Assembly: GCA_016927125.1 (NCBI GenBank)
Contig: JAFGNG010000085.1
Coordinates: 1 to 33,919 of the forward strand
Reading direction: 5' to 3'
Source: Planctomycetota bacterium
Lineage (GTDB): Bacteria > Planctomycetota > SZUA-567 > JAFGNG01
Length of the DNA stretch: 33,919 nucleotides
A model generated the notes under the pieces. The model made no database searches. It saw only the letters and a list, made by a program, of their open reading frames with translations, and was not told where the DNA came from. Shown here piece by piece: positions 11,999-32,245 of this stretch. A program made the position numbers and the translations under genes. Numbering within the stretch: the first letter of the stretch is position 1; the number at the start of each line of letters is the position of its first letter.

Positions 11999-13053
11999 TT
12001 CAGCTTCACTTAGGCATTATCCTATTTTTAGTGATTATTGCCTCCACAATTTTGACCGGATTGCTCCGGCGATATGCTTTAAAAAAGAAACTGATTGATC
12101 ATCCCAATGCGCGCAGCTCCCATGAAGTTCCAACCCCGCGCGGGGGAGGGGCGGCGATAGTAATCACCTGCTTGGCAGGACTCTTTCTTTTACCATATTT
12201 ATACCAGCCCACCGATGAGGTGCTTTATGCCTTATTGGTCGGAGGCCTGCTGGTCGGGGGGATTGGCTTTTGGGACGACCATGGGCATATCCGGGCGAGA
12301 TGGCGGGTGCTGGTGCAGGCGATTGCGGCAGCAGGGTCATTCGCAATAGTTTTTGGCGTGCCTGAATTACAGAATGGGCCTTCTGCCCTGTTCTGGGGCT
12401 GCTTGATATTTATCGCCGCGATCCTTGTGATTGTTTACTTGATCAATATCTATAATTTCATGGATGGGATCGATGGGATTGCTGCGGCAGAAGCGATTAC
12501 CGTGGGGGTTGCCACCGGGATCTTGTTTTATTTTTATAACAATGAATTTGGAGTAATTACAGCCATCGGTTTAGTGGCTTCAGCAGCATCATTGGGTTTC
12601 TTGGTATGGAACTGGCCTCCGGCGAAGATCTTCATGGGAGACTGTGGCAGTGGTTTTCTTGGTTACATCTTTGGTTTCATGATTGCGATCTGTGGGATGT
12701 ATCTATTGTACACAAAATCTGAAAGCGAACTTATCATGTACCTGACCTTGCCATTCCTGCTGGGAGTGTTTATTGTGGATTCGACCGTAACCCTACTGCG
12801 TCGGATCCTGCGATGGGAGAAATTCTGGCTGCCGCACCGGATGCATGCCTACCAGCATTCTTCGAGAAGATGGGGGCACAAGAAGGTGACCGTGGCGGTA
12901 GCATCAATAAATCTTTTCTTCCTCGCGCCCTGCGCCTGGGCGGCATACCACTGGGCGCCTGCCGGGATTTTTATAATGCCCGCTGCATGGATGATCCTGG
13001 CAATTGCCGCCTTGGCCTTGTCCGCGGGCAAGCCGGAAGCAGCGAAAGGGTAA
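11995..13053 (+). CDS. MraY/WecA-family polyprenyl-phosphate N-acetylhexosamine-1-phosphate transferase (initiating transferase, WbpL-like)
   Basis: About 10 TM helices. Motifs IGFWDDHGH and YNFMDGIDGIAA (nt ~12454-12483) are typical of the Glycos_transf_4 family. ATGA overlap at 11995-11998. Confidence 0.85.
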   Translation: MIQLHLGIILFLVIIASTILTGLLRRYALKKKLIDHPNARSSHEVPTPRGGGAAIVITCLAGLFLLPYLYQPTDEVLYALLVGGLLVGGIGFWDDHGHIRARWRVLVQAIAAAGSFAIVFGVPELQNGPSALFWGCLIFIAAILVIVYLINIYNFMDGIDGIAAAEAITVGVATGILFYFYNNEFGVITAIGLVASAASLGFLVWNWPPAKIFMGDCGSGFLGYIFGFMIAICGMYLLYTKSESELIMYLTLPFLLGVFIVDSTVTLLRRILRWEKFWLPHRMHAYQHSSRRWGHKKVTVAVASINLFFLAPCAWAAYHWAPAGIFIMPAAWMILAIAALALSAGKPEAAKG

Positions 13054-13160
13054 GAGTTAATAAAAATCTTGCGCAATACCAGCCTATACTTATACTCTGT
13101 TGAAATCGCGACAGACACTATAATAAGTAACCTTTGATCCATCATTGAGGCCCAAGAGCA

Positions 13161-15071
13161 ATGAAATCAACCTGGCATAAAAGCCTGAACTTCCGGCGTC
13201 CGGCCCTATTTGTGTCGGATATGGTGATAATCCTCTGCGCCTATTACCTGGCATACTGGCTGCGTCTGGATTTGATCCGCGGCGACCAAGCGGCCTATGA
13301 CGCTTACCTGGATACCTTCTGGTACACGATTCCATGGCTTTTGGTGATCAGGTTCTTATGTAGTATCCTGATGCGCCAATATACTTGGGCTTTCCGCCTC
13401 GCCAGCCTGCCGGAGGCTGCAAATCTCGTCAAAGCCGCAATTATCGGCAGTGTGCTCTTCTTCCTGCGCTGGCATCTCTCCGCTGACCTGCTGCAGAAAC
13501 CACCGCTCTCGGTTTATGTAATTGAATTCGCTCTCAGCCTGATGGGGATGGCCTTTGTCCGATTCTTCCCGAGATATTTTTATCAGCAGTATTTTCACAG
13601 CGGACGCGGCTTCATGGCTGATGGAGAAAGCCGCCTGCGCACGCTAATCTTCGGAGCCGGCAGCACCGGCGATTTAATCCTGCGAGATTTGCAGCGTACA
13701 AAGATTTACCCTTACCGGGTAATCGGTCTCATCGATGATAATCCTGCCAAGCGTAATATCTCAATCCACGGCTGCCGGGTGCTGGGATCATCCGATGATC
13801 TGCCGAGGCTGATTCGTAAACATAAAATTGAAAAGATCCTCATTGCCGCACCCGAGATGACCGGCTCACGCTTGCGGCGGATCCTGGACATCTGTTCCAA
13901 CCACCATGTCCAATATAAGATTGTTCCCAACTACGCGGAACTGGTCAGTAAGGGCGATACCGCGCCCATTACCCTGAAGGATCTTCAACCGGAGGATCTC
14001 CTCGACCGCCTGCCGGTGGAATTCGATCATACCCGGATGGCTGCACTATTTCATGACCGTACTCTCCTCGTAACCGGCGCGGCCGGCTCCATCGGCTCGG
14101 AGATCTGCCGGCAGGTTGTCGGGCAGGGAATCAAAAAGCTGGTGGCTGTAGATATTAATGAAAACAACCTCTACTTCCTCAAATTGGAAATTAATGAGCT
14201 TGCCCCCGGCCTTGATCTCAGCATAGAGGTAGCGAGTGTGCGGGATCGCCAGAAAATACAGGAGCTATTCGCCCGGCACCAACCGCATATTGTCTACCAT
14301 GCCGCCGCCCATAAGCATGTTCCGTTGATTGAAAATTGCCCGGAAGAGGCTCTCAAAAATAATGTTCTGGGAACCTTGTATGTCGCGGAAGCAGCGGATC
14401 AGAATGATGTGGAAAGGTTTGTGCTAATCTCCACTGACAAGGCAGTAGGCCCGAGTAGTGTGATGGGGGCAAGCAAACGCTTGGCCGAGGATGTAGTCCG
14501 GGATATGGATCTGCGCAGCAAGACCCGCTTTATGGTGGTCCGCTTCGGCAATGTGCTGGGCTCCAGCGGCAGCCTGGTGCCAATCCTTCAGCGGCAGATC
14601 TCCAAGGGCGGGCCAGTAACCATTACCCATCCGAAGATAACCCGCTTCTTCATGACTATCCAGGAAGCGGTTGGCCTGGTGATTGTCGCTTCCGCCCAGG
14701 ACGAGGGCAACCTCTGCGTACTTGATATGGGGGAACAACTCAATGTCGACCGCCTGGCGCGGCAGATGATCACCCTCTCCGGTTTTATCCCGGATCAAGA
14801 CATCCCAATTATTTACACCGGCTTAAGGCCGGGCGAGAAGATGTTTGAGGAGCTCTTCACCAAGAACGAACAGCGTCGCTCCTCCAGCCATGCCAGGATC
14901 TTCCTGGCTGACGGCGACGCTCCCCGGACAACAATTCCGGAAATGCTTAAGGCACTGGAGGTTACGATAGAGAGCGGGAGAAGAGCGGCGGTTTTCGATT
15001 TCCTCCATCAGCATGTCAAAGATTACCAACCGGTAGAGAACTCCCCTGAGAAGCCTAAATCTGATGATTAA
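13161..15071 (+). CDS. Membrane-anchored nucleotide-sugar 4,6-dehydratase/epimerase (CapD/WbpM/PglF family)
   Basis: Four N-terminal TM helices are followed by two Rossmann-type regions. Motifs LLVTGAAGSIGSEI and ISTDKAVGPSSVMGASKRLAE. 636 aa, as for WbpM/PglF-type proteins. Confidence 0.9.
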   Translation: MKSTWHKSLNFRRPALFVSDMVIILCAYYLAYWLRLDLIRGDQAAYDAYLDTFWYTIPWLLVIRFLCSILMRQYTWAFRLASLPEAANLVKAAIIGSVLFFLRWHLSADLLQKPPLSVYVIEFALSLMGMAFVRFFPRYFYQQYFHSGRGFMADGESRLRTLIFGAGSTGDLILRDLQRTKIYPYRVIGLIDDNPAKRNISIHGCRVLGSSDDLPRLIRKHKIEKILIAAPEMTGSRLRRILDICSNHHVQYKIVPNYAELVSKGDTAPITLKDLQPEDLLDRLPVEFDHTRMAALFHDRTLLVTGAAGSIGSEICRQVVGQGIKKLVAVDINENNLYFLKLEINELAPGLDLSIEVASVRDRQKIQELFARHQPHIVYHAAAHKHVPLIENCPEEALKNNVLGTLYVAEAADQNDVERFVLISTDKAVGPSSVMGASKRLAEDVVRDMDLRSKTRFMVVRFGNVLGSSGSLVPILQRQISKGGPVTITHPKITRFFMTIQEAVGLVIVASAQDEGNLCVLDMGEQLNVDRLARQMITLSGFIPDQDIPIIYTGLRPGEKMFEELFTKNEQRRSSSHARIFLADGDAPRTTIPEMLKALEVTIESGRRAAVFDFLHQHVKDYQPVENSPEKPKSDD

Positions 15072-15137
15072 AGCAACTGACAGCCATGTTTAAAAGCTTC
15101 TCTTTTAGTCCAAGTTGTAGTATTTCTCACAATTTCC

Positions 15138-15165
15138 TTGACAATTTTAAAATTAGGTGTAAAGT
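15138..15165 (+). promoter_or_regulatory. Candidate sigma70-type promoter: TTGACA, 16-nt spacer, TAAAGT
   Basis: TTGACA at 15138-15143 and TAAAGT at 15160-15165, in the only large non-coding gap. Sequence match only. It would imply a ~390-nt leader before the ATG at 15566. Confidence 0.3.
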
Positions 15166-15233
15166 AAAAATCAATAATCAGGTGATGAAGCTCATCGCCC
15201 AGAAACCGGGTTAACCCGAAAAGGAGCAACCTG

Positions 15234-15446
15234 CTAAGTTCGGCATCTTATATTTATGGCATCATTCCAGTCATAGCCCTGATCATACCAGCCGACAATG
15301 CAGACATAAGCTTCACTTGGAGGCAACCCACCATTAAGGCCCATCGGCTTTGAGATCGGGTGCCAGGGATCTATTGCAACAAGTGATGCATATAATGCAA
15401 CGAGAGCAATAAAACCACACCGGCTGGTTAGGGCGAAAATTACCAT
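15234..15446 (-). CDS. Hypothetical small (70 aa) secreted or membrane protein; doubtful gene
   Basis: This is the only ORF in the 494-nt gap and the only minus-strand candidate. It has a hydrophobic N-terminus (MVIFALTSRCGFIALVALYASLVA) and two Cys in the mature part. There is no convincing Shine-Dalgarno and I recognise no family. Confidence 0.25.
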   Translation of the reverse strand: MVIFALTSRCGFIALVALYASLVAIDPWHPISKPMGLNGGLPPSEAYVCIVGWYDQGYDWNDAINIRCRT

Positions 15447-15565
15447 ACAATCTAAAAGTTTTCAGGATCCGAACCTTTATACGGTCGATAACTGGTTTAT
15501 GTGTTTTCAGTTAGGACACATCAAGAGTACAGGATTTTACCGAAAATTGACTTTGGAATAGTGCA

Positions 15566-16570
15566 ATGCTTGCAACCTTGTCCATAGCCAGGAACACACT
15601 GTCCGAGACCTTGCGCCAAAGCGTTTTCGGGGTAGTGCTGCTTGGCGCTGGCTTTTTGATAGCTTCCTCACCCGCCTTCTCCATGTTCACATTCATGGAC
15701 AGCACCAAGCTGGTTCAGGATATGGGGTTGGCTACGATCCTCATTGCCGGGCTGTTTCTCGCCGTCCTATGCTCTATTACCGTTATCAGTAAGGAAATCG
15801 AGGGCAGGACCGCGTTAACAGTCCTGGCCAAGCCCATATCGCGGGGTTCTTTCGTGCTGGGTAAATTCTTAGGCATTTCCGCAGCCATCATTCTGGCAAC
15901 CTGTATCTTAATAGTAGTCCTTCTGCTCACCTTCCGATTTGGCGTGAAGGATGCGGGTTATATTCATCTGAACTGGGATGCGATGATTGGCGTAATCCTC
16001 GCCACCCTCGTGGCGATCTTTATCGGCGTAGCTGATAACTACTTCTTTGGCCGCCCGTTTATGACCACCGCGATCTGGTCGTCGGCTGCGACTTTTACGC
16101 TCTGTTTACTTTTCTTCTGCCTGCGCTACGAAAACGGCGAATTTATAACTACCATCAAAGATTTTGGCTCCGACATCAACTGGCAGATTGCGATTGCGGG
16201 ATTATTGACTATGGAAGCGATATTGATTATGACCGCCATTACCGTGGCTATCAGTACCAGGGGAAATGCGGTTGCCGGGATTATTGCGTGCGCAACCTTC
16301 TTTTCCGGCGGCATGTTATCCGAGTATTTCTTCGGGCGCTTTACGGAAGTCTCGATCTGGGCAAAAGCAGCGTATACCCTCTTCCCGAACCTGCAGATCT
16401 ACTGGGTGACTGAAAGCCAGTTGAAATTCGCGAAATATTATACCGAGTTGATCAATCCGACCATCCCGTTCGATTATGTGGCCATGTCCACACTTTACGC
16501 ATTCTTATATATATGCGCCATCCTCTTATTCGCCCTGGTGCTCTTTGAACGGCGCGAAGTCAGGGAATGA
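15566..16570 (+). CDS. ABC-2-type transporter permease (NosY-like family)
   Basis: 334 aa with ~7-8 TM helices. The N-terminal motif SIARNTLSETLRQSVF also appears in the second permease at 24146 (ALARNTIIQALRMRAA). No ATPase gene is adjacent. Confidence 0.7.
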   Translation: MLATLSIARNTLSETLRQSVFGVVLLGAGFLIASSPAFSMFTFMDSTKLVQDMGLATILIAGLFLAVLCSITVISKEIEGRTALTVLAKPISRGSFVLGKFLGISAAIILATCILIVVLLLTFRFGVKDAGYIHLNWDAMIGVILATLVAIFIGVADNYFFGRPFMTTAIWSSAATFTLCLLFFCLRYENGEFITTIKDFGSDINWQIAIAGLLTMEAILIMTAITVAISTRGNAVAGIIACATFFSGGMLSEYFFGRFTEVSIWAKAAYTLFPNLQIYWVTESQLKFAKYYTELINPTIPFDYVAMSTLYAFLYICAILLFALVLFERREVRE

Positions 16571-16633
16571 TACCTTAATTATATAACAACTTCGCCGCAA
16601 TTGGCAGATGATACATTGAGAAAGGATTTAGCA

Positions 16634-18715
16634 ATGACAGGATCTTTGGGAAAACGCGCGGAGCGTGTGGCGCTGGGCGGATTTTGCCTGACGCTGATCG
16701 GCATGTTTATAATGTGGTATGTTGCATATTACTGCAATTCCATATCCGCACGCGCGGAACTGTTTCACCTCTTGGCTGCCACCCTGGTCTGGGGAATTTC
16801 CACGTTGCACCTCCGGGCGCAGCGCCAGGCGGAAGATGAAAAAGCGGCTCTGGATGAAGCGGAACGCCTGCGCATAGAACAGGGCAAACCCCGCCTCTTT
16901 GACCGGGAAGAAGGAGAAACCGGTATCGCCCAGGTCAGGCTCAAGGACATGGAGCGGTGGGGCGGGCCGATCGCCACAATTATAATTATAGTTCTGCAAT
17001 TATTCGCCGGGGGTTATTTATTATACGCCCTGGCAAACCTGGATAATGCCCCTGGCATTGCTGCCCTGATTGGTATCACCCCCTTTGCGGAACTCAGCAA
17101 TACTACCTTTGCCGGGGCGGCTGCATTTGCCCTCGCGTTCTTCTGTTTTGCGCTCGGGAAATACGCTGCCGGGATGTCCCGTGACAAGCAGGTCGGGATT
17201 CTCCGGGCGGGCGCCGGTTATACCATTAGCTGCGCGCTGATTTGCTTTATCCAGATGATCGCATACGCGATGGCCTATACCGGCTGGCTAACCGGGGAGA
17301 AAATTCTTTCCTGGTTGATCCCGATCATCCTTTTAGCCATGGGGCTGGAAATGGCCATAAACCTGGTCCTTGATTTTTACCGTCCCCGCATCCGCGGCAA
17401 GGAACCCCGCCCCATCTATGACAGCCGCCTTACCGGGCTGTTGGCTGAACCGCAGGGGCTGTTCAAAACCTTTGCCCATACGATGGATTACCAGCTCGGC
17501 TTCAAGGTTTCAGAAACCTGGTTCTTCCAGTTTTTGAACCATGCCATCGCACCACTGATTCTATTTCAACTCCTGTCATTATATCTACTTACCTGCATCT
17601 TGGTTGTCCAGCCGGGGGAGGTGGCGGTGATCGAACTGTGGGGCAGACCCCGGGGGATAGAAACCCTCCCACCCGCACCGCTGTTGAGTGATAGCGCTGC
17701 AGAGAGGGCTGCCAAGGAAGCAGCCTGGGATAATCTCCAGCCTCCGCTCGAACCAGGATTGCATCTGAAGTGGCCCTGGCCAATCGAAATCACGCGCCGG
17801 GTTCCTTGTGAATTGGTACAGGAAATATTTGTCGGCGCTCCCCAGGCTGAGGGACAGGATGAGCCTCTGAAACATGAATCCGCAACTCCCGATGTAGTCT
17901 CGTGGGATCGGGTACATACCAAGGACGAGTTCGCTTACATCATGCCGCTGACCCGTGAGATAAAGACTGAAGTAGAGAATAATGGCGCGGCTGAAACCCC
18001 GGATGTAATGTTTGTATCCGGCGCAATCGCGGTACATTATTCCGCGGGCGGTTCAGCCGCTGATAGCCAGAATCCTAAACGCAGGATCGGCGACATCTAC
18101 CGTTATTTATATCGCTTCGATGATGCCAAGGCCGCAATGATTTCCCTGAGTGAAAGGGAAGTCACCAATTACATGGCAGGCGCGAACTTCTGGAATGTGC
18201 TGGTCGACAAGGTCAAGGAAACCGAAAAAGACCTGACCAGGAGGATCCAACAGGCTGCCGACAGAGCGGGGATCGGGGTGCGGGTGGTCTTTGTCTCGCT
18301 TTCCAATGTCCATCCCCCAGTTGGCGAGGTTGGCAAGGCCTTCCAGGAAGTAGTCTCCGCCCGTGAGAAGATGTTTACTATTATCCACCAGGCAAATGCC
18401 CAGGCAGCGCAGATTCGGGCAAGCTGGCCGGGCAAGGCCCAGACCATGATTAATGAAGCGATCGGCTACCGGGATGAACGGGTCTTGCTCTCGGAAGCGG
18501 AATCCAAGCGCTTTTTAAACCAACTGACGGCTTTTAACGCTGCCCCGAATGTCTATCTCCACCGCGAACGCATGCGCGCTATCGAGGAAGGCATGGAATC
18601 CGCCTTGCGCCTGACGGTAGTGCCGCCGGATACAGTCGCCTTCTTCGATGCCAAGGCTCAGGATACCGCCGGGGTAGTTGGCGAGGCGTTGGGTAAAGAA
18701 TTTAAAAATCCTTAA
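16634..18715 (+). CDS. Polytopic (~7 TM) membrane protein with a C-terminal SPFH/Band-7 domain, HflK-like
   Basis: I prefer the ATG at 16634 (AAAGGA at 16621-16626, 7 nt upstream). The alternative is the TTG at 16601. The SPFH domain starts VVQPGEVAVIELWGRP (nt ~17603), then GLHLKWPWPIE. The HflK-like C-terminus is VHPPVGEVGKAFQEVVSAREK...NEAIGYRDERVLLSEAESKRF. Confidence 0.85.
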   Translation: MTGSLGKRAERVALGGFCLTLIGMFIMWYVAYYCNSISARAELFHLLAATLVWGISTLHLRAQRQAEDEKAALDEAERLRIEQGKPRLFDREEGETGIAQVRLKDMERWGGPIATIIIIVLQLFAGGYLLYALANLDNAPGIAALIGITPFAELSNTTFAGAAAFALAFFCFALGKYAAGMSRDKQVGILRAGAGYTISCALICFIQMIAYAMAYTGWLTGEKILSWLIPIILLAMGLEMAINLVLDFYRPRIRGKEPRPIYDSRLTGLLAEPQGLFKTFAHTMDYQLGFKVSETWFFQFLNHAIAPLILFQLLSLYLLTCILVVQPGEVAVIELWGRPRGIETLPPAPLLSDSAAERAAKEAAWDNLQPPLEPGLHLKWPWPIEITRRVPCELVQEIFVGAPQAEGQDEPLKHESATPDVVSWDRVHTKDEFAYIMPLTREIKTEVENNGAAETPDVMFVSGAIAVHYSAGGSAADSQNPKRRIGDIYRYLYRFDDAKAAMISLSEREVTNYMAGANFWNVLVDKVKETEKDLTRRIQQAADRAGIGVRVVFVSLSNVHPPVGEVGKAFQEVVSAREKMFTIIHQANAQAAQIRASWPGKAQTMINEAIGYRDERVLLSEAESKRFLNQLTAFNAAPNVYLHRERMRAIEEGMESALRLTVVPPDTVAFFDAKAQDTAGVVGEALGKEFKNP

Positions 18716-18768
18716 AATAGGTTTATTTGAAAAATAACTTTTGAAAGTACCAAGTGAAAGGGAATAAC

Positions 18769-19698
18769 ATGGAAACCAAACGAAACAGCTTCTGGACATT
18801 TCTGGTAGCATTTATCCTGATGTCTATCTTCGTGGTCTACCTCTTTGCCTACCAGGTCCCGGCCGGGAAGGTCGGGGTATTGATCCGGCTCGGTGATATC
18901 AAGACCCCGATCGATGAAACCCCGGGATTGAAATTCCGCTTGCCTTGGCCCTTTGATGAAGTGCGGCTCTTGGATATGCGCACCCGGCTCTTTTCAACCA
19001 AGCTGCAGGAATGCCTGACCAAGGATAAACGGAATCTTAATTTCAAGATCACCGCGGGTTGGCGGATTGTCGATCCCAATACCTTTATCAACCGCCTGAA
19101 GACGGTGGAGGAGGCCGAAAAGAGCCTGGTCAGCCGCGTTGACAGCGCGCGCGGGCGGGCAGTCGGCGAGGTCGAGTTACATGATTTGATCAATGAGGAT
19201 TTTAATCTCCAGCAAGAGAAATTCGCCGCTTTTGAAGACAAGATCAAGGAAACCTTGAATCTTGAGCTCAAGCAGGCGGACTGGGGAGTAACCATTGATT
19301 TTCTCACTGTCCAGCAGATCGGATTCCCTCAGCCCACCACCAATGATGTTTTTAAGCGCATGATAGCAGAGCGTTCAGAGGAGAGTAAAAAGATTATTTC
19401 CGAAGGCGAGAGCGAAGGGGAATCGATCGTTTCGAAGGCGGAAGCCGAGAAGCGCAGCCAGCTTGCCCTGGCCGATGCCAAGGCGAGGATTATCCGCGGA
19501 GAAGGTGATGCCGCTGCCGCCAAGCATTATACGATATTCCGACAAAATCCTGAACTCGCCAACTATCTGCGTAGCATCCAGACCCTGCGCAAGGTTATGA
19601 CTGAGCGCACCACCTTGCTTCTGACTACCAAGCAGACACCTTTTGATTTGTTGGAACAAGACGCGGTTCCCGAGGTGAAGATTAACCCCGGTCAATAA
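18769..19698 (+). CDS. hflC: SPFH/Band-7 protein, HflC-like
   Basis: Single N-terminal TM, then QVPAGKVGVLIRLGDIKTP...PGLKFRLPWPFDEV. C-terminal FKRMIAERSEE...ARIIRGEGDAAAAKHY...LANYLRSIQTLRKV parallels E. coli HflC (MRAEREA...IMRGEGDAEAAK...FYAFIRSLRAY). I prefer the ATG at 18769 over the GTG at 18754 because of the upstream AAAGGGA. Confidence 0.85.
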   Translation: METKRNSFWTFLVAFILMSIFVVYLFAYQVPAGKVGVLIRLGDIKTPIDETPGLKFRLPWPFDEVRLLDMRTRLFSTKLQECLTKDKRNLNFKITAGWRIVDPNTFINRLKTVEEAEKSLVSRVDSARGRAVGEVELHDLINEDFNLQQEKFAAFEDKIKETLNLELKQADWGVTIDFLTVQQIGFPQPTTNDVFKRMIAERSEESKKIISEGESEGESIVSKAEAEKRSQLALADAKARIIRGEGDAAAAKHYTIFRQNPELANYLRSIQTLRKVMTERTTLLLTTKQTPFDLLEQDAVPEVKINPGQ

Positions 19699-19761
19699 TA
19701 AATAGTAAACTGGATTCGCCTGTTGTAATTTTGGTGAAAGAAAGCAGATGAGGATTTATCG

Positions 19762-20898
19762 ATGACAGAAAATCATAATCATAATCCTGCTGAGCCCCCC
19801 CTGGAGAAAAACCGCTACCAGGAAGCTCAGGAACAGGCCTCGCAGAGCCTCTCTGACGCCCTGCAAACCAGTTTTTCCGTTCTCAGGATTGGAATGGTGC
19901 TGGTAATTATCTTCTTCTTCTTGCGTGGCTTCTTTGTGGTCAGCCCCGGAACCGTCGTCTTAAAGACCCGGTTTGGCGCTTATATCCGCGAAGAAGGCAA
20001 GGTTAAGGAATATACCGAAGGCGGCTTATATTACGCGATTCCGCTGCTGGAAAAGATGGAAGTTATTGATCTTACCAGCAAAACTATCAAACTGGCCAAA
20101 GAATTTACCGTCCCGGAAGATTTCCAAAAGAGATTCAGAGAATATGAACTTGGTGATCTTCGGCCCGGGATCGATGGCTATACCATCACTGGTGACACCA
20201 ATATCCTGCATACAGTCTGGGAATTGGAATACCGGGTAACCGATCCCTACCGCTACCGGGTGTCCTTCCAGGAGAAAGATACGGGTGAACGGAACCTGCA
20301 GACCGGCCAGCCGGTTTACCGCTCCGGACCGGAACAGCTCCTGCGGGAAGCTTTCCGCAACGCGGTGGTGCGGGTATCAGCGGGCATTGCAATTGATGAT
20401 GCGCTGACCAACCGGAATTACCAGTCCCGCATCCTGAGCTTGACCCAGAAAAACCTCTGGCAGTATGATTGCGGGATTGAACTCGTGGAGGTCCGTAATG
20501 AAAGCGCCAAGCCGCCCCAACCCACCGAAGCCGCCTTCAATGCTGTTACCCAGGCCAAGAGCATCAAGGAAACCATGAAGAGCAACGCCGAGGGTGACGC
20601 CCGGACTATTCTTGAAAAGGCCAAGGGCAGGGCAAACGCGATTATCCATGAGGCAGAATCTTATAAGACCGAGATTGTCGAATCGGCGCGTTCCGACGCC
20701 CAAGTCATATTCGATCTCCTGCAGAAATTCCCGAATGACTCGCAAGGGTTGAATATTTATCTGCAACAATACCACCAGGAGATCCTGGCAGAGATTTTAC
20801 AAAAGACCAAGGTCAGAATAGTCCGGCCGGGCCCGACCTGGTACATGACCGGCCCGCCCCTGGAAGAACTCAGCGGACTCATGGAAGCAACAAAATAA
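19762..20898 (+). CDS. hflK: SPFH/Band-7 protein, HflK-like
   Basis: GAGGA lies 7 nt upstream of the ATG. Polar N-terminal tail, one TM, FFVVSPGTVVLKTRFGAY. HflK-like C-terminus PPQPTEAAFNAVTQAKSIKE...AEGDARTILEKAKGRANAIIHEAESYKTEIV. Confidence 0.8.
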   Translation: MTENHNHNPAEPPLEKNRYQEAQEQASQSLSDALQTSFSVLRIGMVLVIIFFFLRGFFVVSPGTVVLKTRFGAYIREEGKVKEYTEGGLYYAIPLLEKMEVIDLTSKTIKLAKEFTVPEDFQKRFREYELGDLRPGIDGYTITGDTNILHTVWELEYRVTDPYRYRVSFQEKDTGERNLQTGQPVYRSGPEQLLREAFRNAVVRVSAGIAIDDALTNRNYQSRILSLTQKNLWQYDCGIELVEVRNESAKPPQPTEAAFNAVTQAKSIKETMKSNAEGDARTILEKAKGRANAIIHEAESYKTEIVESARSDAQVIFDLLQKFPNDSQGLNIYLQQYHQEILAEILQKTKVRIVRPGPTWYMTGPPLEELSGLMEATK

Positions 20899-20934
20899 CA
20901 CAGGATTATAAAAGCCAGAGGGCTTTAAGTTATA

Positions 20935-22872
20935 ATGAAAGGAAAACGCCAAATGACAAGTTGTACACCCCAAACCGCTGCCTGTGGCTGTCCCTTACAT
21001 GACAGCGCGGAAGATCGCCAGCGATTGACTATTATCCGCCTGATCCTGACCTTCCTGGGCGGGGCATTAATAATCAATAGTTTCATTGCCGAATGGATCT
21101 TTACCGCCGACCCACAACGCGCCTCTTTTTCCGCCATGATTGGCGCCATCCTGCTGGGCGGGCCGCTAATCTGGAAATCTATCAAGGATTTGATGTTGGG
21201 GCATTTCCGTATGACAGAGCTGGCGTCGTTGGCGATCCTGGCCAGCTTTACCAGCGGACTCTATACCGAGGCCGGGCTGGTTGCTTTCTTCCTACAGCTC
21301 GGCCAGCTTATCGAGAGCCGGACAGCCCTCGGGGCCCAGGCCAGTATCGAAGGCTTGATTCGCCTGACCCCGACTACCGCGCACCTGGTTAGCGATGGCG
21401 CCGAGCACGATGTCGAGGTAATCTCCCTTAAAAAGGGCGATATTATCCGGGTACGTCCGGGCGAGAATATTCCGGCTGATGGCATTATCACCTCCGGCGC
21501 TACCAGCATCAATGAAGCCAGCGTCACCGGTGAAAGCCTGCCAGTTGATAAAGGACCTGATGAGATCGTCTTTGCCGGCACGGAAAACTACACCGGCGCT
21601 ATCGACATCAAGGTTACCACCGTTGGGGAAGACACTACCCTCGGTAAGGTCCGGCACCTGATTATGGAAGCGGAGCGCACCCGCCTGCCGGTCATGCAGA
21701 TTATTGATAAGTATGTGCATTGGTACACCCCGGTGATTCTTATGCTGTCGGCGATCATCCTTTTCTTCTCCGGCGAACCGAGCTATGCCATCGCCGCGCT
21801 GGTGGTGTCCTGCCCCTGCGCGCTGGTAATGGCTACGCCGACGGCGATGGTAGCGGGGTTGACCAGCGCCGCCCGGCTCGGAATTTTAATTAAAAACGTT
21901 GCCCACCTTGAAGCGGCCGGGGAGATTACCGCAGTGGTATGCGACAAGACCGGCACGCTTACCACCGGCGAACTTGCGGTCAGCCGCCTCTCTCCATTAG
22001 AAGGCATTGAGCCCGCGCAATTGCTTTATACTGCGGCCAGCGCTGAGCGCCATAGTAATCACCCGGTTGCCCGCGCGCTTCTGCGGGTCGCCCAGGAGGC
22101 CCGGCTCGAGCTGGGAGAGCCGACAGAATTCATTGAAGCCGGCGGCAAGGGTATTACCGCCACGCTTGATGGCAAGAAATACGCGATCGGACGCGAGAGC
22201 TTCCTGAAGGAACAAAAGGTTGATTTCTCCAAGCTGTCAGAACCCGAACTCAAGGAGAGTGAAGGCTTCAGTACAATCTATGTCGCTGAAAATGGCGTCT
22301 GCCTGGGTTGGATTGGGCTCGAAGACCATACCCGCCCGGAAGCCCGCCAGGCTACCGATGAATTACGAGAAGCCGGCATCCGGCATATCACCATGCTTAC
22401 CGGCGACCGCTGGGGGGTGGCGAAGCGCGTTGCTGGTGAGCTGGGCTGTGATGAGGTGGTGGCGGAATGCCTGCCTGCGCAGAAGCTCGAGTTGGTGGAA
22501 GAAATGAAGAAGAACCATCTCTCCGTTGCGGTTGTGGGTGACGGCGTCAACGACGCACCCGCTCTCGCTGCCGGCGATCTCGGCATTGCCATGGGGGCAG
22601 CGGGCAGCGATATCGCAGTCAACTCAGCCTCCATTGCTTTGATGAGCAATGATCTGAGAAGGCTGCCTTTCCTGGTGCGGCTTTCCCGCCTGGTGAGGAA
22701 GGTGGTTTATCAAAACCTGGTATTCGGGATTCTCTTTATTGTAATCGGTATCACCCTCTCTGCGTACGGCAAAATTACCCCGATTATGGCTGCCGTGCTG
22801 CATTGCCTGGGCTCGGTCCCGGTTATTTTTAACTCCGCCCGGATTGTCCGTTATGGTGAAGAACTAAGCTGA
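20935..22872 (+). CDS. Heavy-metal-translocating P1B-type ATPase without a classical HMA domain
   Basis: CPC in TM6 (TGC CCC TGC, 21811-21819). DKTGTLT (from 21943). SNHPVARA (HP motif). GDGVNDAPAL hinge. The alternative start ATG at 20953 has AAAGGA 9 nt upstream and may be the true start. Confidence 0.9.
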   Translation: MKGKRQMTSCTPQTAACGCPLHDSAEDRQRLTIIRLILTFLGGALIINSFIAEWIFTADPQRASFSAMIGAILLGGPLIWKSIKDLMLGHFRMTELASLAILASFTSGLYTEAGLVAFFLQLGQLIESRTALGAQASIEGLIRLTPTTAHLVSDGAEHDVEVISLKKGDIIRVRPGENIPADGIITSGATSINEASVTGESLPVDKGPDEIVFAGTENYTGAIDIKVTTVGEDTTLGKVRHLIMEAERTRLPVMQIIDKYVHWYTPVILMLSAIILFFSGEPSYAIAALVVSCPCALVMATPTAMVAGLTSAARLGILIKNVAHLEAAGEITAVVCDKTGTLTTGELAVSRLSPLEGIEPAQLLYTAASAERHSNHPVARALLRVAQEARLELGEPTEFIEAGGKGITATLDGKKYAIGRESFLKEQKVDFSKLSEPELKESEGFSTIYVAENGVCLGWIGLEDHTRPEARQATDELREAGIRHITMLTGDRWGVAKRVAGELGCDEVVAECLPAQKLELVEEMKKNHLSVAVVGDGVNDAPALAAGDLGIAMGAAGSDIAVNSASIALMSNDLRRLPFLVRLSRLVRKVVYQNLVFGILFIVIGITLSAYGKITPIMAAVLHCLGSVPVIFNSARIVRYGEELS

Positions 22873-22883
22873 AGGGATATACT

Positions 22884-24092
22884 GTGGATGAACCTATAAT
22901 CCAAACCCACGAAGTTGTGAAAGTCTTCAAGGACTTTTGGCATCGCCCCCGGGTAAAAGCGGTTGACAACCTGACCCTGTCGGTATCAAGGGGAGAGGTC
23001 TACGGCCTGTTGGGGCCCAATGGCAGCGGCAAGAGCACAACCATCAAGATGCTTCTGGGCTTGCTGTTTCCAACCAGCGGCCAGATTGCGATCTTCGGCA
23101 AGCCGCCATCAGATGTGGCAGTGAAAAAGAGGATTGGGTTCCTCCCCGAGGAAAGCTACCTCTATCCCTACCTGAATGCGGTTGAGACCTTGGATTTCTA
23201 TGGCCGGCTCTTTAGTCTGCCGGGCGCGGAAAGAAAACGCCGCGTGGAATCGCTCCTGCGCATGACCGGACTGTCCGGCGCGCGGGGACGTCTTCTCAGG
23301 GAATATTCTAAGGGCATGGCGCGGAGGATAGGGATTGCACAGGCCATGATTAATGACCCGGAATTGATTATTCTGGATGAACCCACTACCGGCTTGGATC
23401 CGCTCGGTACGAGGGAGATTAAAGATCTTATCCTGGAACTAAAAGATAAGGGCAAGACGGTCTTGTTATGCAGCCATCTCTTAGCAGATGTTGAAGATGT
23501 CTGCGACCGCGTCGGGATTCTCTACGGCGGGCGTCTGCAAGCCGAAGGCCAGACCACGGAGTTATTACGGCAGGATCGCCAGACTCAAATTACCGCGGAA
23601 CTGGATGATAAAACTCTGCAGGAAGCCTTGGCGTTAATCAGAAAACGCCAAGGCGATGCCATCCCGATCAAGGTAGCACCCCCGATCGAAAGGTTGGAAA
23701 ATTTCTTCCTGAGAGTGGTGGAAGAGGCGAGAACTGCGGAACAACCTACCAGCGGGGTAGAGGAAGCGGTCTCTGGCCTGGACTTCCTAAGTGATGCGGA
23801 CAAAGACAAAGTGGATGTGTTTAACCGTTTAAGCGCGCCAAAACCCCTGCCTGTCAAGGTTATGCCGGTTGCTTCGCCAGCAGGGACGACGAAGAAACCT
23901 TCTGGTACGAAAACCGCGGAACAGAAAATCCTGAGCAACCTTACTGCGCCTCGAAGCATGGAAACCAAACCTGAACCTAAGAAGAAGACAGCCGGTAAAT
24001 CCGAGGCTGGTAAACCCCTGCAGGCCGATAGCAAGGTGTTAAATCGATTGCTGGATCAAGATTCCAGCAAACGGCAAACAGACAAGAAGTAA
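22884..24092 (+). CDS. ABC transporter ATP-binding protein (ABC-2/CcmA-type) with a ~115-aa Lys/Pro-rich C-terminal tail
   Basis: GTG start 6 nt after GAAGGGA. Walker A GPNGSGKST. Signature YSKGMARRIG. Walker B LIILDEPTTGLD. H-loop LCSHLL. The tail begins at about nt 23730. Confidence 0.9.
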   Translation: MDEPIIQTHEVVKVFKDFWHRPRVKAVDNLTLSVSRGEVYGLLGPNGSGKSTTIKMLLGLLFPTSGQIAIFGKPPSDVAVKKRIGFLPEESYLYPYLNAVETLDFYGRLFSLPGAERKRRVESLLRMTGLSGARGRLLREYSKGMARRIGIAQAMINDPELIILDEPTTGLDPLGTREIKDLILELKDKGKTVLLCSHLLADVEDVCDRVGILYGGRLQAEGQTTELLRQDRQTQITAELDDKTLQEALALIRKRQGDAIPIKVAPPIERLENFFLRVVEEARTAEQPTSGVEEAVSGLDFLSDADKDKVDVFNRLSAPKPLPVKVMPVASPAGTTKKPSGTKTAEQKILSNLTAPRSMETKPEPKKKTAGKSEAGKPLQADSKVLNRLLDQDSSKRQTDKK

Positions 24093-24145
24093 TACCGGCA
24101 AATAACGGGCGGTTTGCCCGAGATGGATTTATCTTAAAGGTAGTT

Positions 24146-25723
24146 GTGATTATGGGAATTATCTGGGCACTGGCCCGCAATACTATCATTCAGGCCTTAC
24201 GAATGCGTGCGGCTTTGGTTTTGATTGTTCTCTTCTTTATCGCTGCGCCCGTGCTGCTTTTCAATGTGGGGGAGGATAACGCGGATGATGTCCGCACTCC
24301 GCGCTTACTTCGGATCGAGGCCGATGGCACCCAGGAAGGCGAGGTCAAGCTGCTCTTAACCTACAGCGTGACCATTGCCTCGATTCTGCTCATCGTCTTG
24401 ACTATCCTCTTGTCAGCGAGTGTGCTGGATGTAGAGATCGTCAAGAAATACGCCTTTCTTATCTGCTCCAAACCGGTCCGTCGATGGCAGATCATGGTCG
24501 GCAAGTGGCTCGGGATAGTTTTGCTGAACACTGCGCTGCTGTTTATTATGGGGATATTAATCCTCTGCGAGGTCTGGTACTTTTCCAGAACCGATCCCGC
24601 CTTCCCGGAAGGGCGTGAAAAGCTAATGGCAAAAGTGCTTACCAGCCGCATCAGCATCCGCCCAGACACCCTGGATGTACAGAAAGAATATGAAAAATTA
24701 AGACTGGAATTATTAAAAGAAGGTGTTAAAAATGAAAACATTGATAAGCAATTGCTCCAGCCACAAATAAAGAACTACTTCGAGGAATGCACCACTGAAG
24801 TACCGCCGATGGGCGTACAATCCTTCACCCTCAAGGGTGTACCTATAGCGGAAAACCCTGAAGAAACCTTCTATACTTTCCGGTATAAACTCTATTCCGC
24901 TAAGGCAACAGATTTACCCCTCTATGGCCGCTGGCGGTTTGTAAAAAAAACCGAGAAAAAATATGGCGAAGTCTATAGCCGGAGTAAGGAAAGTGAAATT
25001 GAAGAATTTCCGATCCCGGCTTCGCTGGTCGATGATAATGGAGAGATCTTCGTTGAATTCCAAAATTTGACTATTGGCAACCCTGATGATCCTAATCCCA
25101 AGAATCGCATTCCTCATACCGTTACCTTCAGCTTGACCAAAGGCGTGGAATTATTGGCGTACAAGGAATCCGGACTCGGGAATTTTCTGAAATCGCTCAG
25201 TAGTGCCGGGGTGGTAAGGGATTTGGCCGAAGTTTTGCCTTTTATAATCAATTTCTTCAAAGCCTTGCTCCTGCTCTTAATCCGGCTGATGATGATCGCC
25301 GCGATCGGCGTAGCCGCTACCTCATTAGTACACTTTCCGGTCGCAATTCTGGTTTTATTGCTGGTCGTCTTCCTGGGCTCCACCCGGGATGTTTACGCCA
25401 ATATTTTGGTCCAGACAATCCGGCGTGAAAAAGCTGAGCCCACCCCGGAATTCGAAGCCGGTGAGATAGCCAAGGACACCGCGATATCGTTATATAATGA
25501 AGTTGGCAAACCTGCCTGGAAATTTATTCTAAAAGTGATTACCAAGGTCCCTCCCAGGTTTGAAGATACCAACCCGATTCCAGATTTTACTGTAGGAAGA
25601 GAAATCAGCTGGTCCCGGGTTATGGCTCAGGTCTTCATGGATTTAATCCTGCGAGGAGGGATAGTATTTGGCCTCGGGATTTTCTTGTTCTATCGCCGGG
25701 AAATCGGACGACCTGAGCTTTAA
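24146..25723 (+). CDS. ABC-2-type permease-like membrane protein with a large (~225 aa) extracytoplasmic insertion
   Basis: N-terminal ARNTIIQALR motif and ...SVLDVEIVKKYAFLICSKPVRRWQIMVGKWLG..., typical of ABC-2 permeases. A hydrophilic insert lies between the TM clusters (nt ~24600-25260). The start could be the GTG at 24146 or the ATG at 24152 (AAAGG at 24136-24140). Confidence 0.7.
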   Translation: MIMGIIWALARNTIIQALRMRAALVLIVLFFIAAPVLLFNVGEDNADDVRTPRLLRIEADGTQEGEVKLLLTYSVTIASILLIVLTILLSASVLDVEIVKKYAFLICSKPVRRWQIMVGKWLGIVLLNTALLFIMGILILCEVWYFSRTDPAFPEGREKLMAKVLTSRISIRPDTLDVQKEYEKLRLELLKEGVKNENIDKQLLQPQIKNYFEECTTEVPPMGVQSFTLKGVPIAENPEETFYTFRYKLYSAKATDLPLYGRWRFVKKTEKKYGEVYSRSKESEIEEFPIPASLVDDNGEIFVEFQNLTIGNPDDPNPKNRIPHTVTFSLTKGVELLAYKESGLGNFLKSLSSAGVVRDLAEVLPFIINFFKALLLLLIRLMMIAAIGVAATSLVHFPVAILVLLLVVFLGSTRDVYANILVQTIRREKAEPTPEFEAGEIAKDTAISLYNEVGKPAWKFILKVITKVPPRFEDTNPIPDFTVGREISWSRVMAQVFMDLILRGGIVFGLGIFLFYRREIGRPEL

Positions 25724-25750
25724 ATGCTGCAATGAAAAATTTACTTTGTA

Positions 25751-27979
25751 GTGAATAATACTATACGGAGTTTTGCATTGTCAGAATATAAACGAACCCT
25801 ACCCTGGACATTATGGATAGCCCTCCTCAGCCTGTTTGCTGCGGTAGTAATCTTTTCGGTAGTGGCTTATACCACCAATCCGGTTTTCCTGGCGGGAATC
25901 CCAGTCCCTGCGCTGCTTCTCTGGGGCCTGGCAAGGGGAAAGCGTTGGGCGTATCTTCTTACGATCGTCGTGTCGATTGGCAGTATGATCTTTGCATTAT
26001 ATTATGAATCTTCCACCGCTGCGATGTTCAGGTTTTTTACAATTTTGCCGGTCTTAATCCCGGTCTTACTTTGCACCTGGTTTTTCTTCCCCAAAACAGG
26101 ATTAGCCACCGAAACTTATCCTAATCCCCCGAATCCGGCCAGGAAGAAGCAGTTTATTTGTTGCCTGCTTGCCGTCGCCCTTTTGATTGGAGCGATGCAA
26201 ACCCTGGAGCCCACTATTACACTCCGTGACAAATACAATCTGTCCGTGAATCCTGTGAGTGAGGGGGTGCCGCCCGAGATCGTCCTGGCAACCACCTTCC
26301 TGGGTGGATTTCGCAGCATCTTTATTGATGTCCTCTGGTTGCGGGCCATGGCGATGAAGCAGGAAGGCAATTATTTTGAAATGGTCCAGCTGTATGACTG
26401 GATCACCAATATGCAACCCCATTACGCGCAGGTTTGGAGTTTTATTGCTTGGGACCTGGCGTACAATGTCTCGGTTGATTATCAAGACCTTGAAGATCGC
26501 TGGTTCTGGATCTATCGCGGCATTCGTTACCTTCGCGACAAGGGTATTCCGGCAAACCGTAATGTATCTTCCCTTTATCTCGACCTGGCCTGGATTTTTG
26601 AACACAAACTTGGCGCAACCATGGACTATGCCCACCAGATCTATCGGGTTAAGTGGTGGCGGATGATGCAGGAGGCGCTTAAAGGTTCTGGGGAACGCGA
26701 ACAGCTCGAAGCGCTGGTCGACATACCTGATGATCTTGGAGGGGTACAAAAGTATCTTAATGAGATCATGAATTACCCTGATAATACTGACACCTTGCGA
26801 CAGGACAAAAATGTTGATCAAGCCGCCACCTTCCTGACTGATAACGGAATTGATCTCTTCGCTGAATACACCGGCTTATCAGATTTCCCGGAAGAGTATC
26901 CGGAGAATGTCCAGCAATACCTCAAAACCAAGGAAGCAATCGAAGCCTTTAAGACCATTCGCCTTTACCGGATAAAAAACTGGTTGGCTAATAACTTAAA
27001 GGAAAATACTGCGCAACAGTTGATTGAGATTAAAGAGAACTTGGCGCGATTGAAGCTGGAGCCGGAACTGATGCTTAACGTTACCAAGAACTTTGGGCCG
27101 TTGGATTGGCGCGGGTGCGACGCTCACAGTATGTACTGGGTATCCAAGGGACGGGAAATTCGGGTTTACCAGTTATCCCAGAAGCAGTTGCGGGAGAGCC
27201 TTGATTACAAGATGATGGACATCAGGTTCGAACGGCGCCTGTATAACTGTATGCAGGAACTTCTCCGTCGGGGCCGCTTCATGATAACCTCTGATGGCTA
27301 CACCTACACGATTCCGGACTACCGCTTCATCGAACCTACGCTGCGATACTTCCGGAAGGTTCTGAAAGAGGTCCGGTCAAGTCGCTCGCAAGCGGGCCGG
27401 GAGCTTAATGGCAAAGGGATACAATCCTGCTACATGTACCTCCTGGAAAGATGTATCTTTATGTATTACTTCAACGGTCAGATTAACATTGCGGATCGCT
27501 ACCTTGAGTACATGCGCGAGGAAGCACCGTTAAACCCGAACTTCCAGGTTACCGCGGAGCAGTTTGTCAGGAATAATATTGCGCAATGGATTAGCGATAT
27601 GACGCCTAATCGTTATCACACCATGGTCGAGGGTATGATCCGATGGAGTTTTATTGATCTTGCCCAGGGTGATTACGCCAGTGCGGCAAACCGCGAGAAA
27701 GAGATCCACTTGCTTGAAGAATACGCCCAAAAGCGCTGGCCTTACGATCCCGAAAATAAGGAAGACCAGTTTAAATACCTTGCCCCCCTCGAAGACCTAT
27801 CCTCGGACATGTTGGTGCGGATCCTAGACGGTAAGGAACCAGGCTTTAGCCCGGCAATGCGTCAGCGATTGGAGAAGGCCTTAGGCCCAGAAAAGATCAA
27901 AAACGCCAGGAAGAGAGTCGAGCAAAAAGCCGGTTTCATCAACAATTTAAAGGATAAACCTGTAGCCACAGGGCAGTAA
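25751..27979 (+). CDS. Hypothetical 742-aa membrane-anchored protein with a large aromatic-rich helical domain
   Basis: GTG start with a weak RBS. About 5-6 N-terminal TM helices, then ~550 aa of soluble sequence rich in W/Y (WITNMQPHYAQVWSFIAWDLAYNVSVDY, RWFWIYRGIRYLRD, IYRVKWWRMMQEAL). I recognise no family. Confidence 0.7.
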   Translation: MNNTIRSFALSEYKRTLPWTLWIALLSLFAAVVIFSVVAYTTNPVFLAGIPVPALLLWGLARGKRWAYLLTIVVSIGSMIFALYYESSTAAMFRFFTILPVLIPVLLCTWFFFPKTGLATETYPNPPNPARKKQFICCLLAVALLIGAMQTLEPTITLRDKYNLSVNPVSEGVPPEIVLATTFLGGFRSIFIDVLWLRAMAMKQEGNYFEMVQLYDWITNMQPHYAQVWSFIAWDLAYNVSVDYQDLEDRWFWIYRGIRYLRDKGIPANRNVSSLYLDLAWIFEHKLGATMDYAHQIYRVKWWRMMQEALKGSGEREQLEALVDIPDDLGGVQKYLNEIMNYPDNTDTLRQDKNVDQAATFLTDNGIDLFAEYTGLSDFPEEYPENVQQYLKTKEAIEAFKTIRLYRIKNWLANNLKENTAQQLIEIKENLARLKLEPELMLNVTKNFGPLDWRGCDAHSMYWVSKGREIRVYQLSQKQLRESLDYKMMDIRFERRLYNCMQELLRRGRFMITSDGYTYTIPDYRFIEPTLRYFRKVLKEVRSSRSQAGRELNGKGIQSCYMYLLERCIFMYYFNGQINIADRYLEYMREEAPLNPNFQVTAEQFVRNNIAQWISDMTPNRYHTMVEGMIRWSFIDLAQGDYASAANREKEIHLLEEYAQKRWPYDPENKEDQFKYLAPLEDLSSDMLVRILDGKEPGFSPAMRQRLEKALGPEKIKNARKRVEQKAGFINNLKDKPVATGQ

Positions 27980-28077: not shown

Positions 28078-28980
28078 TTGAATCGTCGTCTGCTTATCGC
28101 CCTCGCATTATGTATCATCCTGCCAGGGTGTGCGTTACCGTGGGGTGAAAGCGAAAGCGAGCCTCCACCGGTTCTTGACACTATTCCAGAAGCGGAATTA
28201 ATCCCCTCCCAGAGAGCCTCGGAACTCGTAAAGCTGGCGGTCGCGCCTGCCTCCACGCTTAATGGCCTGGAGATCCAGGGAAAACTAAAGGCTGAAGATG
28301 CAAGCGAAAATGATTTCAACCTCCGTTGTGTAATCCAGCTTTTGATGGAGAGGCCGGCAAAGTTACGCCTCGCTGCCACCAAGGGTTTGAATACCGAAAT
28401 CATGGATCTCTCCATGATTAATGATTCGCTGGATGTCTGGCTGCCAACTAAGAATATCCTCTATCGCGGCAGAGTTCGCGACCTTGCTACCAGCGGTATG
28501 GATTTCCATCCCAACGAGATTGTTGAACAACTACTGTTTCCAGTAGAAGAATTCAATACAATGGCATGGGGCATAGTCTCTGACACGGATGATTTCATCA
28601 TCGTAATGGAAGTAAGTTCAAATCGTTATAAAAACCGCCTCACCATTGACAACGAAACCGGTGTACTTATTAGGCGCGAGATAATTGGCCCGGATGGGCT
28701 GGTCTACCTTGAATCGACCTTTTCCAAGCACAAGGAAATCAAAAAACATCCAGAACTCAACCTCTTTCCCCATCAAGTGCAACTGTGGTTCCCCCAGGAG
28801 AAGCGCAAATTGCTCTTTTACCGGCTGAGCATCATGCCCAATCCGGACACCTCCGAAAAAGATTACCGCTTTGTCGCTCCCGAGGATGCCGTCATTAAGT
28901 CCCTTAACGTACAGGAACAGGTTGATATTGCCTCTGCTCTCCAGGAGGTTGAGGAAACTACGGAGGAAGGCGGGCAATGA
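28078..28980 (+). CDS. Lipoprotein, LolB/DUF4292-like (tentative)
   Basis: TTG start 7 nt after AAGGTG. Signal peptide with lipobox L-P-G-C (Cys18, nt 28129-28131). The mature part resembles LolA/LolB-fold proteins (LRCVIQLLMERPAKLRLAATKGLNTEIMDLSMINDSLDVWLPTKNILYRG). ATGA overlap with the next gene. Confidence 0.7.
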   Translation: MNRRLLIALALCIILPGCALPWGESESEPPPVLDTIPEAELIPSQRASELVKLAVAPASTLNGLEIQGKLKAEDASENDFNLRCVIQLLMERPAKLRLAATKGLNTEIMDLSMINDSLDVWLPTKNILYRGRVRDLATSGMDFHPNEIVEQLLFPVEEFNTMAWGIVSDTDDFIIVMEVSSNRYKNRLTIDNETGVLIRREIIGPDGLVYLESTFSKHKEIKKHPELNLFPHQVQLWFPQEKRKLLFYRLSIMPNPDTSEKDYRFVAPEDAVIKSLNVQEQVDIASALQEVEETTEEGGQ

Positions 28981-32084: not shown

Positions 32085-32245
32085 TTCCAGCAGGAACGGC
32101 ATATATTTCCGACATAACAATAATGATGTGAACTCATGGACATTGCCCATGATATTTATATAATAATTTATACAACATTGTGACAAAGAATTAAGTTTAA
32201 ACCTGTAAATGACGAATAAATTAAAAGGTTATTTGGAGTATTAAT

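Follow-up and report, generated by a model that had tools for sequence, protein, structure and literature searches.

Contig JAFGNG010000085.1 of a Planctomycetota bacterium (GenBank assembly GCA_016927125.1) carries, at positions 15566–27979, eight consecutive genes in which three SPFH proteins of the HflK/HflC type are combined with a metal-exporting P1B-ATPase and an ABC-2 transport system. The eight open reading frames (ORFs) are labelled A to H and together are referred to as the module; the window is the whole stretch of DNA analysed (33,919 nucleotides, 33.9 kb), in which the plus strand holds every large ORF. An initial annotation of this DNA had reported eight same-strand genes separated by gaps of 11–63 nt, and both the coordinates and the domains were confirmed by ORF calls and by searches of Pfam and NCBIfam; with the start codons of that annotation, the successive gaps from A to H are 63, 53, 63, 36, 11, 53, and 27 nt. 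The genes are as follows.

15566–16570, plus strand: A, NosY-like ABC-2 permease of 334 amino acids (aa) (PF12679 ABC2_membrane_2, 45.9 bits, above cutoff)
16634–18715, plus strand: B, 693 aa, an HflK-like SPFH domain to which a seven-transmembrane (7-TM) domain is joined at the N-terminus (Band_7, TIGR01933)
18769–19698, plus strand: C, HflC-like SPFH protein with one N-terminal TM segment (Band_7, TIGR01932)
19762–20898, plus strand: D, HflK-like SPFH protein with one TM segment (Band_7, TIGR01933)
20935–22872, plus strand: E, CPC-type P1B metal-exporting ATPase whose TM5/TM6 signature is atypical and whose N-terminal tail is rich in Cys and His (TIGR01525)
22884–24092, plus strand: F, ABC ATPase of the DrrA/NosF/ABCA type, or DrrA/GldA/NodI type by Pfam/NCBIfam (ABC_tran, TIGR01188)
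24146–25723, plus strand: G, second ABC-2 permease, a paralogue of A, with a periplasmic insert of ~230 aa (profile match to NosY)
25751–27979, plus strand: H, predicted membrane-anchored, TPR-like alpha-solenoid protein with a lineage-specific extra N-terminal TM bundle (AlphaFold2 [AF2] model)

When a single genome from each GTDB species was scanned with a profile, relatives of B were found in at least 592 genomes, and a word-indexed protein search returned 135 relatives, mostly from metagenome-assembled genomes (MAGs) of Planctomycetota and Verrucomicrobiota. The best 80 of the at least 592 loci, together with six from contig look-ups (n = 86), were compared by tblastn of all window proteins against the fetched loci, the presence of a gene being counted where the contig was long enough. 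Recurrence of the neighbourhood in distant taxa, which the initial annotation had named as the check on its proposal, is evident: the order B-C-D-(E)-F-G-H, all on the same strand, is found in 71 of the 71 loci where four or more module genes were detected downstream of A, and these come from several Planctomycetota lineages and from Verrucomicrobiota. A lies directly upstream of B, on either strand, in 77/77 loci; C is present in 78/79, D in 69/74, E in 59/62, F in 59/60, G in 55/56, and H in 49/52. Of the five loci in which D was missed, four (L008, L018, L063, and L079) show a gene-sized gap between C and E, which on inspection of L008 was seen to contain a 422-aa ORF; the fifth, L084, is an out-of-cluster paralogue. 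Across the loci the gene junctions are tight or overlapping, with overlaps of stop and start codons at B-C, C-D, F-G, and G-H.

Parts of the module have nevertheless been rearranged. A is divergent in 63 of 82 loci, always adjoining B, and is co-directional in the lineage of the window, in Brocadiia, and in Verrucomicrobiota. At another locus (L085), an orthologue of E (54% identity, with the same ACPC and TM6 His motifs) has been relocated upstream of A and is still in the cluster. Adjacency that is kept through the inversion of A and the relocation of E suggests selection on the linkage itself. Because E and H are lost, or in the case of E relocated, at some loci, the invariant core of the module consists of the three SPFH genes together with A, F, and G, and E and H are frequent accessories. 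Thus, the view of the initial annotation that the eight genes form a unit stands for A, B, C, D, F, and G, which are constant, but not for E, which is missing in L082, L083, and L086, or for H, which is missing in L068, L070, and L086.

That E and H can be lost while the remainder is kept speaks for an explanation in which the SPFH trio, the metal pump, and the ABC-2 exporter with H are three independent units lying in inherited synteny, with no physical coupling among them. A Brocadiia contig (L016), on which only A-B-C is seen before the context changes, points in the same direction. However, this contig provides the sole case in which the SPFH trio and the A/F/G core are split. Furthermore, the flanks differ completely between lineages whereas the module persists in two phyla, its adjacencies have been kept through the rearrangements, and its codons overlap at four junctions. 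Inherited synteny of uncoupled units is consequently considered unlikely.

Neither the upstream nor the downstream flanking genes of the window accompany the module in the fetched loci, and clustering of the flanking ORFs of these loci gave no further cross-lineage family and no protease or NfeD. At ~20–40 loci with a divergent A (e.g., L008:2704–8833), the upstream genes encode a GNAT acetyltransferase, an acyl carrier protein, a FabA-like dehydratase, two ketoacyl synthases, and seryl-tRNA synthetase. These neighbours were considered as parts of the module and then set aside as lineage-specific synteny of Phycisphaerae-type loci.

The carriers are labelled Phycisphaerae, Sedimentisphaerales, Brocadiia, 'Pirellulales', and Verrucomicrobiota. 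In 6/6 gene trees the Verrucomicrobiota form a single clade, as the Brocadiia do in three, suggesting vertical descent at the level of the phylum. MAGs labelled 'uncultured Pirellulales' (within L005–L078) mix with Phycisphaerae and Sedimentisphaerales in all six trees and have A inverted likewise, which is likely to reflect labelling or binning rather than gene transfer. A few relatives of B bear MAG labels from outside the Planctomycetes-Verrucomicrobia-Chlamydiae (PVC) group (Limnocylindrales, Baltobacteraceae, and Paceibacterota); these could be binning errors. The intermixing of the 'Pirellulales' with Phycisphaerae, like the presence of a P1B-ATPase having a His/Cys-rich N-terminal tail, would also suit a horizontally mobile heavy-metal resistance island with accessory membrane proteins. 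However, the phylum-level monophyly in all six gene trees runs counter to this idea, and the flanks contain no recurrent integrase, transposase, or repeat context. In addition, no compositional anomaly was seen, the cluster has no linked gene for a metal sensor or regulator, and the pump is a dispensable part rather than the core. A mobile island is thus regarded as highly improbable.

The SPFH proteins give above-cutoff matches to Band_7 (PF01145), with 35.3 bits for B, in its C-terminal half, 89.4 for C, and 55.1 for D. All three miss the equivalog cutoffs of NCBIfam: C scores 127.4 versus 134.4 for TIGR01932 (hflC), and D and B score 95 and 91, respectively, versus 159.4 for TIGR01933 (hflK). 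They are mutually homologous (hhalign 99.3–99.9%, with 99.9% for B versus D), and their best matches in the Protein Data Bank (PDB) are E. coli HflC for C (E 3e-22) and E. coli HflK for D (E 3e-12) and B (E 1.4e-9). Alternative starts exist for B (TTG at 16601, giving 704 aa) and for C (GTG at 18754). C and D have one TM segment each, and B has seven by both hydropathy and an AF2 model (mean predicted local distance difference test [pLDDT] 75.5), which shows, after the 7-TM domain, an SPFH domain, a coiled-coil helix of 72 residues, and strands at the C-terminus. In Foldseek, the top matches of this model are HflK, HflC, stomatin, and erlin, and the modelled coiled coil and C-terminal strands would correspond to elements used for cage closure in HflK/C-type assemblies. 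The positive-inside rule, the one guide used here, predicts that the SPFH domains of B, C, and D are all periplasmic.

The 7-TM domain of B has matches in 801 representative clusters. Most of the best 150 of these are 600–870 aa in length, long enough to include the SPFH half, and the shorter members among them look like fragments. Conservation within the domain is greatest in a TM6 stripe (E250, N254, and D258) and in a cytoplasmic motif, YRPR...DSRL...DYQFGFKVSxTW. The nearest structures found by Foldseek for residues 1–335 (16634–17605) are zinc transporters of the cation diffusion facilitator (CDF) family, YiiP and ZnT, at a target-normalised TM-score of 0.5–0.59. The hallmarks of CDF proteins are a Cation_efflux domain and metal-binding DxxxD or HxxxD sites in TM2 and TM5. 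B gives no match to the Cation_efflux family of Pfam even at E 10, its TM2 has no conserved polar residue, and its TM5 has none of the D/H type; the CDF reading was consequently dropped, and the resemblance is kept as a lead only. A separate observation is a 1009-aa paralogue of B at L084:22–3051, which has the 7-TM and SPFH parts, carries an SMC_N-like C-terminal region, and lies outside any module context.

In E. coli, hflK-hflC is not linked to ftsH. The initial annotation had stated that no ftsH, NfeD, or other protease gene is present nearby, and indeed no such domain is found by Pfam or NCBIfam in any major ORF of the window; the flanks of the fetched loci hold no ftsH, and no other protease or NfeD gene recurs there. 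Its use of this absence as an argument against a protease role is weak, though, since the E. coli genes are unlinked as well and C and D are closest to HflC and HflK. The absence of ftsH from the cluster is therefore uninformative, and an FtsH encoded elsewhere is a live rival. In such a reading, C and D, together with B, are the HflK/HflC of this lineage and modulate that FtsH, and the ABC and P1B genes are co-regulated neighbours or quality-control substrates. The score of C near the HflC cutoff and the best PDB matches, namely the HflC and HflK of E. coli FtsH complexes, argue for it. Furthermore, the trio might take the place of canonical HflKC (SPFH3), which is not listed for three Planctomycetes genomes (Hinderhofer 2009; PMC2636767).

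The E. coli HflK/HflC-FtsH complex (7VHP, 7WI3, and 9CZ2) is among the closest known systems. B, C, and D share with the E. coli proteins the Band_7 domain, encoding by adjacent paralogous genes, and a predicted periplasmic location of the SPFH domain, and the model of B has the coiled coil and C-terminal strands. However, the module has three paralogues rather than two, all of them under the equivalog cutoffs; the 7-TM domain of B is found in no other architecture among the best 150 of the 801 clusters; and the trio is always linked to the ABC-2 genes and usually to the P1B pump, not to hfq-hflX. A role restricted to FtsH would leave unexplained the invariable adjacency to the ABC genes, the adjacency of A after its inversion and the linkage of E after its relocation, as well as the third paralogue with a dedicated 7-TM domain, nearly always in this context. 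Modulation of an unlinked FtsH is judged possible but somewhat unlikely as the account of the module.

The ABC system comprises A, F, and G. The copy of G in the window has a sub-threshold match to PF12679 (20.9 versus 27.2 bits), and 15 of 16 orthologues match this family. When family profiles were compared with solved structures, NosY was the only match both for G (E 3.5e-9) and for A (7o0y_D, E 0.019). By hydropathy, G consists of three TM segments, a stretch of ~230 residues (about 141–372, between TM3 and TM4), and three further TM segments. The two permeases had been described as having a common N-terminal motif and as the paralogous halves of one transporter served by a single ATPase, separated by ~7.6 kb. 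The motif (IARNTLSETLR in A and LARNTIIQALR in G) is real and is conserved across both families, the homology extends to A 208–334 versus G 370–522 (hhalign 98.9%), and the separation is 7575 nt. Both permeases always accompany the single ABC ATPase, F, and this fits one heterodimeric transporter.

F itself matches ABC_tran with 110 bits and TIGR01188 with 216 bits. Its best solved matches are the nucleotide-binding domains of eukaryotic ABCA proteins (237 bits), and NosF is the first named prokaryotic one (174.6 bits). Walker A is present in 57/57 sequences, and the Walker B and signature motifs are intact. Two side observations were made on F: in the translation, a C-terminal tail of ~150 aa (residues ~250–402; 23640–24092) is of low complexity and rich in Lys, Pro, Thr, and Glu, and the tblastn coverage of F across loci ranges from 66 to 100%. 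A search with PADLOC gave only generic P-loop matches, for F, and a reading of the locus as a defence system was rejected.

The nearest characterised counterpart is the NosDFY(L) system (7O0Y), which serves in N2O reductase maturation and copper handling. As in that system, an ABC-2 transporter with a periplasmic domain occurs in a transition-metal context, A and G are closest to NosY, and F is close to NosF after ABCA. The likeness is remote, as the profile E-value of 3.5e-9 for G and the sub-threshold Pfam score of its window copy indicate. Furthermore, no NosD, NosL, or NosZ domain is found in any ORF of the window, and the permease of the module would be a heterodimer of two paralogues, with the insert in G as its periplasmic part.

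E matches TIGR01525 with 533 bits versus a cutoff of 346, and it has the features of a P1B-ATPase, including DKTGT, TGES, and the Cys tripeptide of TM4. DKTGT is found in 59/59 sequences, CPC in 57/59, and the TM6 motif LHxx(G/S)(S/T) in 50/59; the N-terminal tail is likewise His- or Cys-rich in 50 of the 59. E is the most conserved gene of the module, with 54–61% identity across loci and phyla, as compared with ~50% for F and 25–35% for the SPFH proteins, the permeases, and H. In TM4, E reads (S/A)CPC. When TM5 is aligned to that of CopA, F-I replaces Y-N, and the zinc-type Lys is also missing. TM6 reads LH(F/C)xGS with a conserved His, and the spacing from Asn to His is ~28 residues, followed by HxxGS.

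Among known classes, P1B-1 pumps (Cu+) have YN(x)4P in TM5 and MxxSS in TM6, and P1B-2 pumps (Zn2+/Cd2+) have a Lys in TM5 and DxG in TM6. P1B-4 pumps have SPC in TM4 (with HEGxT), and P1B-6 pumps have N-X18-H-N-X-(S/T) between TM5 and TM6 (PMC13460109). As read from its motifs, E fits none of the P1B-1, P1B-2, P1B-4, and P1B-6 sets with which it was compared. Like CopA (3RFU and 7R0G; 336 bits) and ZntA (4UMV; 281 bits), it has the full P1B core with DKTGT, TGES, and CPC. Unlike them, it lacks an HMA domain, it has neither YN nor Lys in TM5, and its TM6 has a His (LHxxGS) instead of MSS or DxG.

H has no sequence match in Pfam, NCBIfam, or the PDB, and in 16 orthologues Pfam detects only a faint TPR. 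The AF2 model (pLDDT 79) is all-helical, with one or more TM anchors, and Foldseek returns generic TPR solenoids only, at TM-scores below 0.25. The assignment of a specific fold was given up at this point, and the model suggests a membrane-anchored TPR-like alpha-solenoid. The description of this 742-aa protein as an orphan has to be abandoned, however: H has a family, with 22 database matches and presence at 47 loci.

Given these observations, i.e., the composition of the module, its homologies and conservation, the linkage maintained through rearrangements, and the intact catalytic motifs of E and F, it is postulated that an HflK/C-type ring facing the periplasm is built from B, C, and D and that this ring confines or regulates the ABC machine and the metal pump encoded with it. 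The probability of this reading is put at roughly 0.5, and its central element, the scaffolding or gating of transporters by SPFH proteins, is inferred from gene linkage. In this model, B, C, and D would co-assemble on the periplasmic face into a hetero-oligomeric ring or cage like that of HflK/C. The ring would bound a patch of membrane in which the ABC machine, and the metal pump at loci that have one, would be housed or regulated. Both the exit of the pump and the ectodomain of G would face the periplasmic space within the ring. The SPFH assembly would then have a 'client' encoded in its own operon, rather than only FtsH.

Several findings weigh against such a ring around transporters. One is the likeness of C and D to ordinary HflC and HflK, the E. 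coli versions of which act together with an FtsH encoded at an unlinked locus. Some lineages do without E or H, as the losses listed above show, and this may indicate a looser association of sub-units. In addition, every carrier seen is a MAG and none is cultured; a look-up through the cluster members gave metagenomic entries only. The transporter-enclosing ring and the modulation of an unlinked FtsH are, on the other hand, compatible with each other and not mutually exclusive.

A more specific variant would make the B/C/D cage an SPFH metallation chamber, a periplasmic nano-compartment for metal handling that is characteristic of PVC bacteria. The atypical P1B pump would bring a transition metal into the interior of the cage, and the NosFY-like machine would act as an ATP-driven mechanotransducer through the ectodomain of G and perhaps H, with the metal being passed to envelope clients or sequestered. 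This variant is held to be distinctly unlikely.

The idea of a ring around transporters has precedents. Stomatin cages enclose AQP1 and UT-B (PMC12407830), and the HflKC of E. coli influences how stable IspG, TonB, and further proteins are (PMC12005517). In M. tuberculosis, PacL scaffolds cluster the P1B-ATPases CtpC/G/V in 'effluxosomes' (PMC13460109). Prokaryotic SPFH proteins with operon-encoded partners have been described as well, although the 2009 survey describes the NfeD type only (PMC2636767). With the stomatin cages, the module would share an SPFH oligomer that encloses or regulates transport proteins. It differs in having as partners primary active transporters whose genes lie in one operon with the SPFH genes, and in having SPFH proteins of the HflK/C type with a predicted periplasmic orientation; it also differs from the stomatin-NfeD pairs, in that there is no NfeD in the window and the flanking ORFs of the fetched loci include no small partner family that recurs. 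PacL resembles the module as a small membrane scaffold protein co-encoded with P1B-ATPases, the idea in both cases being that it matters for the pumps to be clustered in membrane platforms. However, PacL (DUF1490/DUF6110) is unrelated to SPFH, the cluster has no match to these Pfam families, and in the module the pump is an accessory and the ABC-2 system is the constant partner. Taken together, the stomatin, PacL, and E. coli HflKC cases make the idea of enclosure a reasonable one that is not new in kind.

Each component is a member of a known family. The novelty lies in their hard-wired combination, in the third HflK paralogue with its dedicated 7-TM domain, and in the unclassified P1B signature. 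The initial annotation had known of no system with this composition, and full-text literature searches likewise found no description of one. To our knowledge, FtsH is the only well-established client of a bacterial SPFH assembly, and what the HflK/C, flotillin, and stomatin assemblies of bacteria enclose is largely open. The module offers candidate clients that are encoded in the operon itself and conserved over two phyla and hundreds of species; consequently, an HflK/C-type cage dedicated to primary transporters becomes directly testable. It also draws attention to an uncharacterised P1B-ATPase signature (CPC plus the TM6 His), to a new 7-TM domain found so far only in proteins long enough for SPFH, and to a widespread NosFY-like ABC system beyond the context of N2O reductase.

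The remaining features concern the surroundings of the module in the window. Upstream of A is a gap of 494 nt (15072–15565), in which a consensus scan picked out one weak promoter candidate:

15138–15165, plus strand: sigma-70-like promoter candidate, TTGACA-16-TAAAGT (10/12 matches), in the gap 5' of A

If used, this candidate would imply a leader of ~400 nt. A search of the whole window against Rfam found no riboswitch or other Rfam family in the leader, and the sole match was to a tRNA near the end of the window. The genes on both sides of the module, considered as possible parts of it, were dismissed since they do not recur beside the module in the fetched loci. On the upstream side, a long cluster for polysaccharide biosynthesis of the O-antigen type (11–15071, plus strand) includes Wzy_C, GT1 and GT4 glycosyltransferases, an AsnB-like amidotransferase, PMT_2, a fused ADH/GFO oxidoreductase, a heparinase II/III-like protein, an epimerase, a WecA-like GT4, and Polysacc_synt_2. 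On the downstream side, three consecutive genes (28078–33139, plus strand) encode a DUF4292/LolB-like lipoprotein, an HpnN/BstA-like RND (MMPL) transporter, and a LolA-like protein, which together are a candidate set for hopanoid, sterol, or lipid trafficking. They are followed by a gene for a STAS-domain protein (33136–33627) and then by the tRNA gene (33790–33862).

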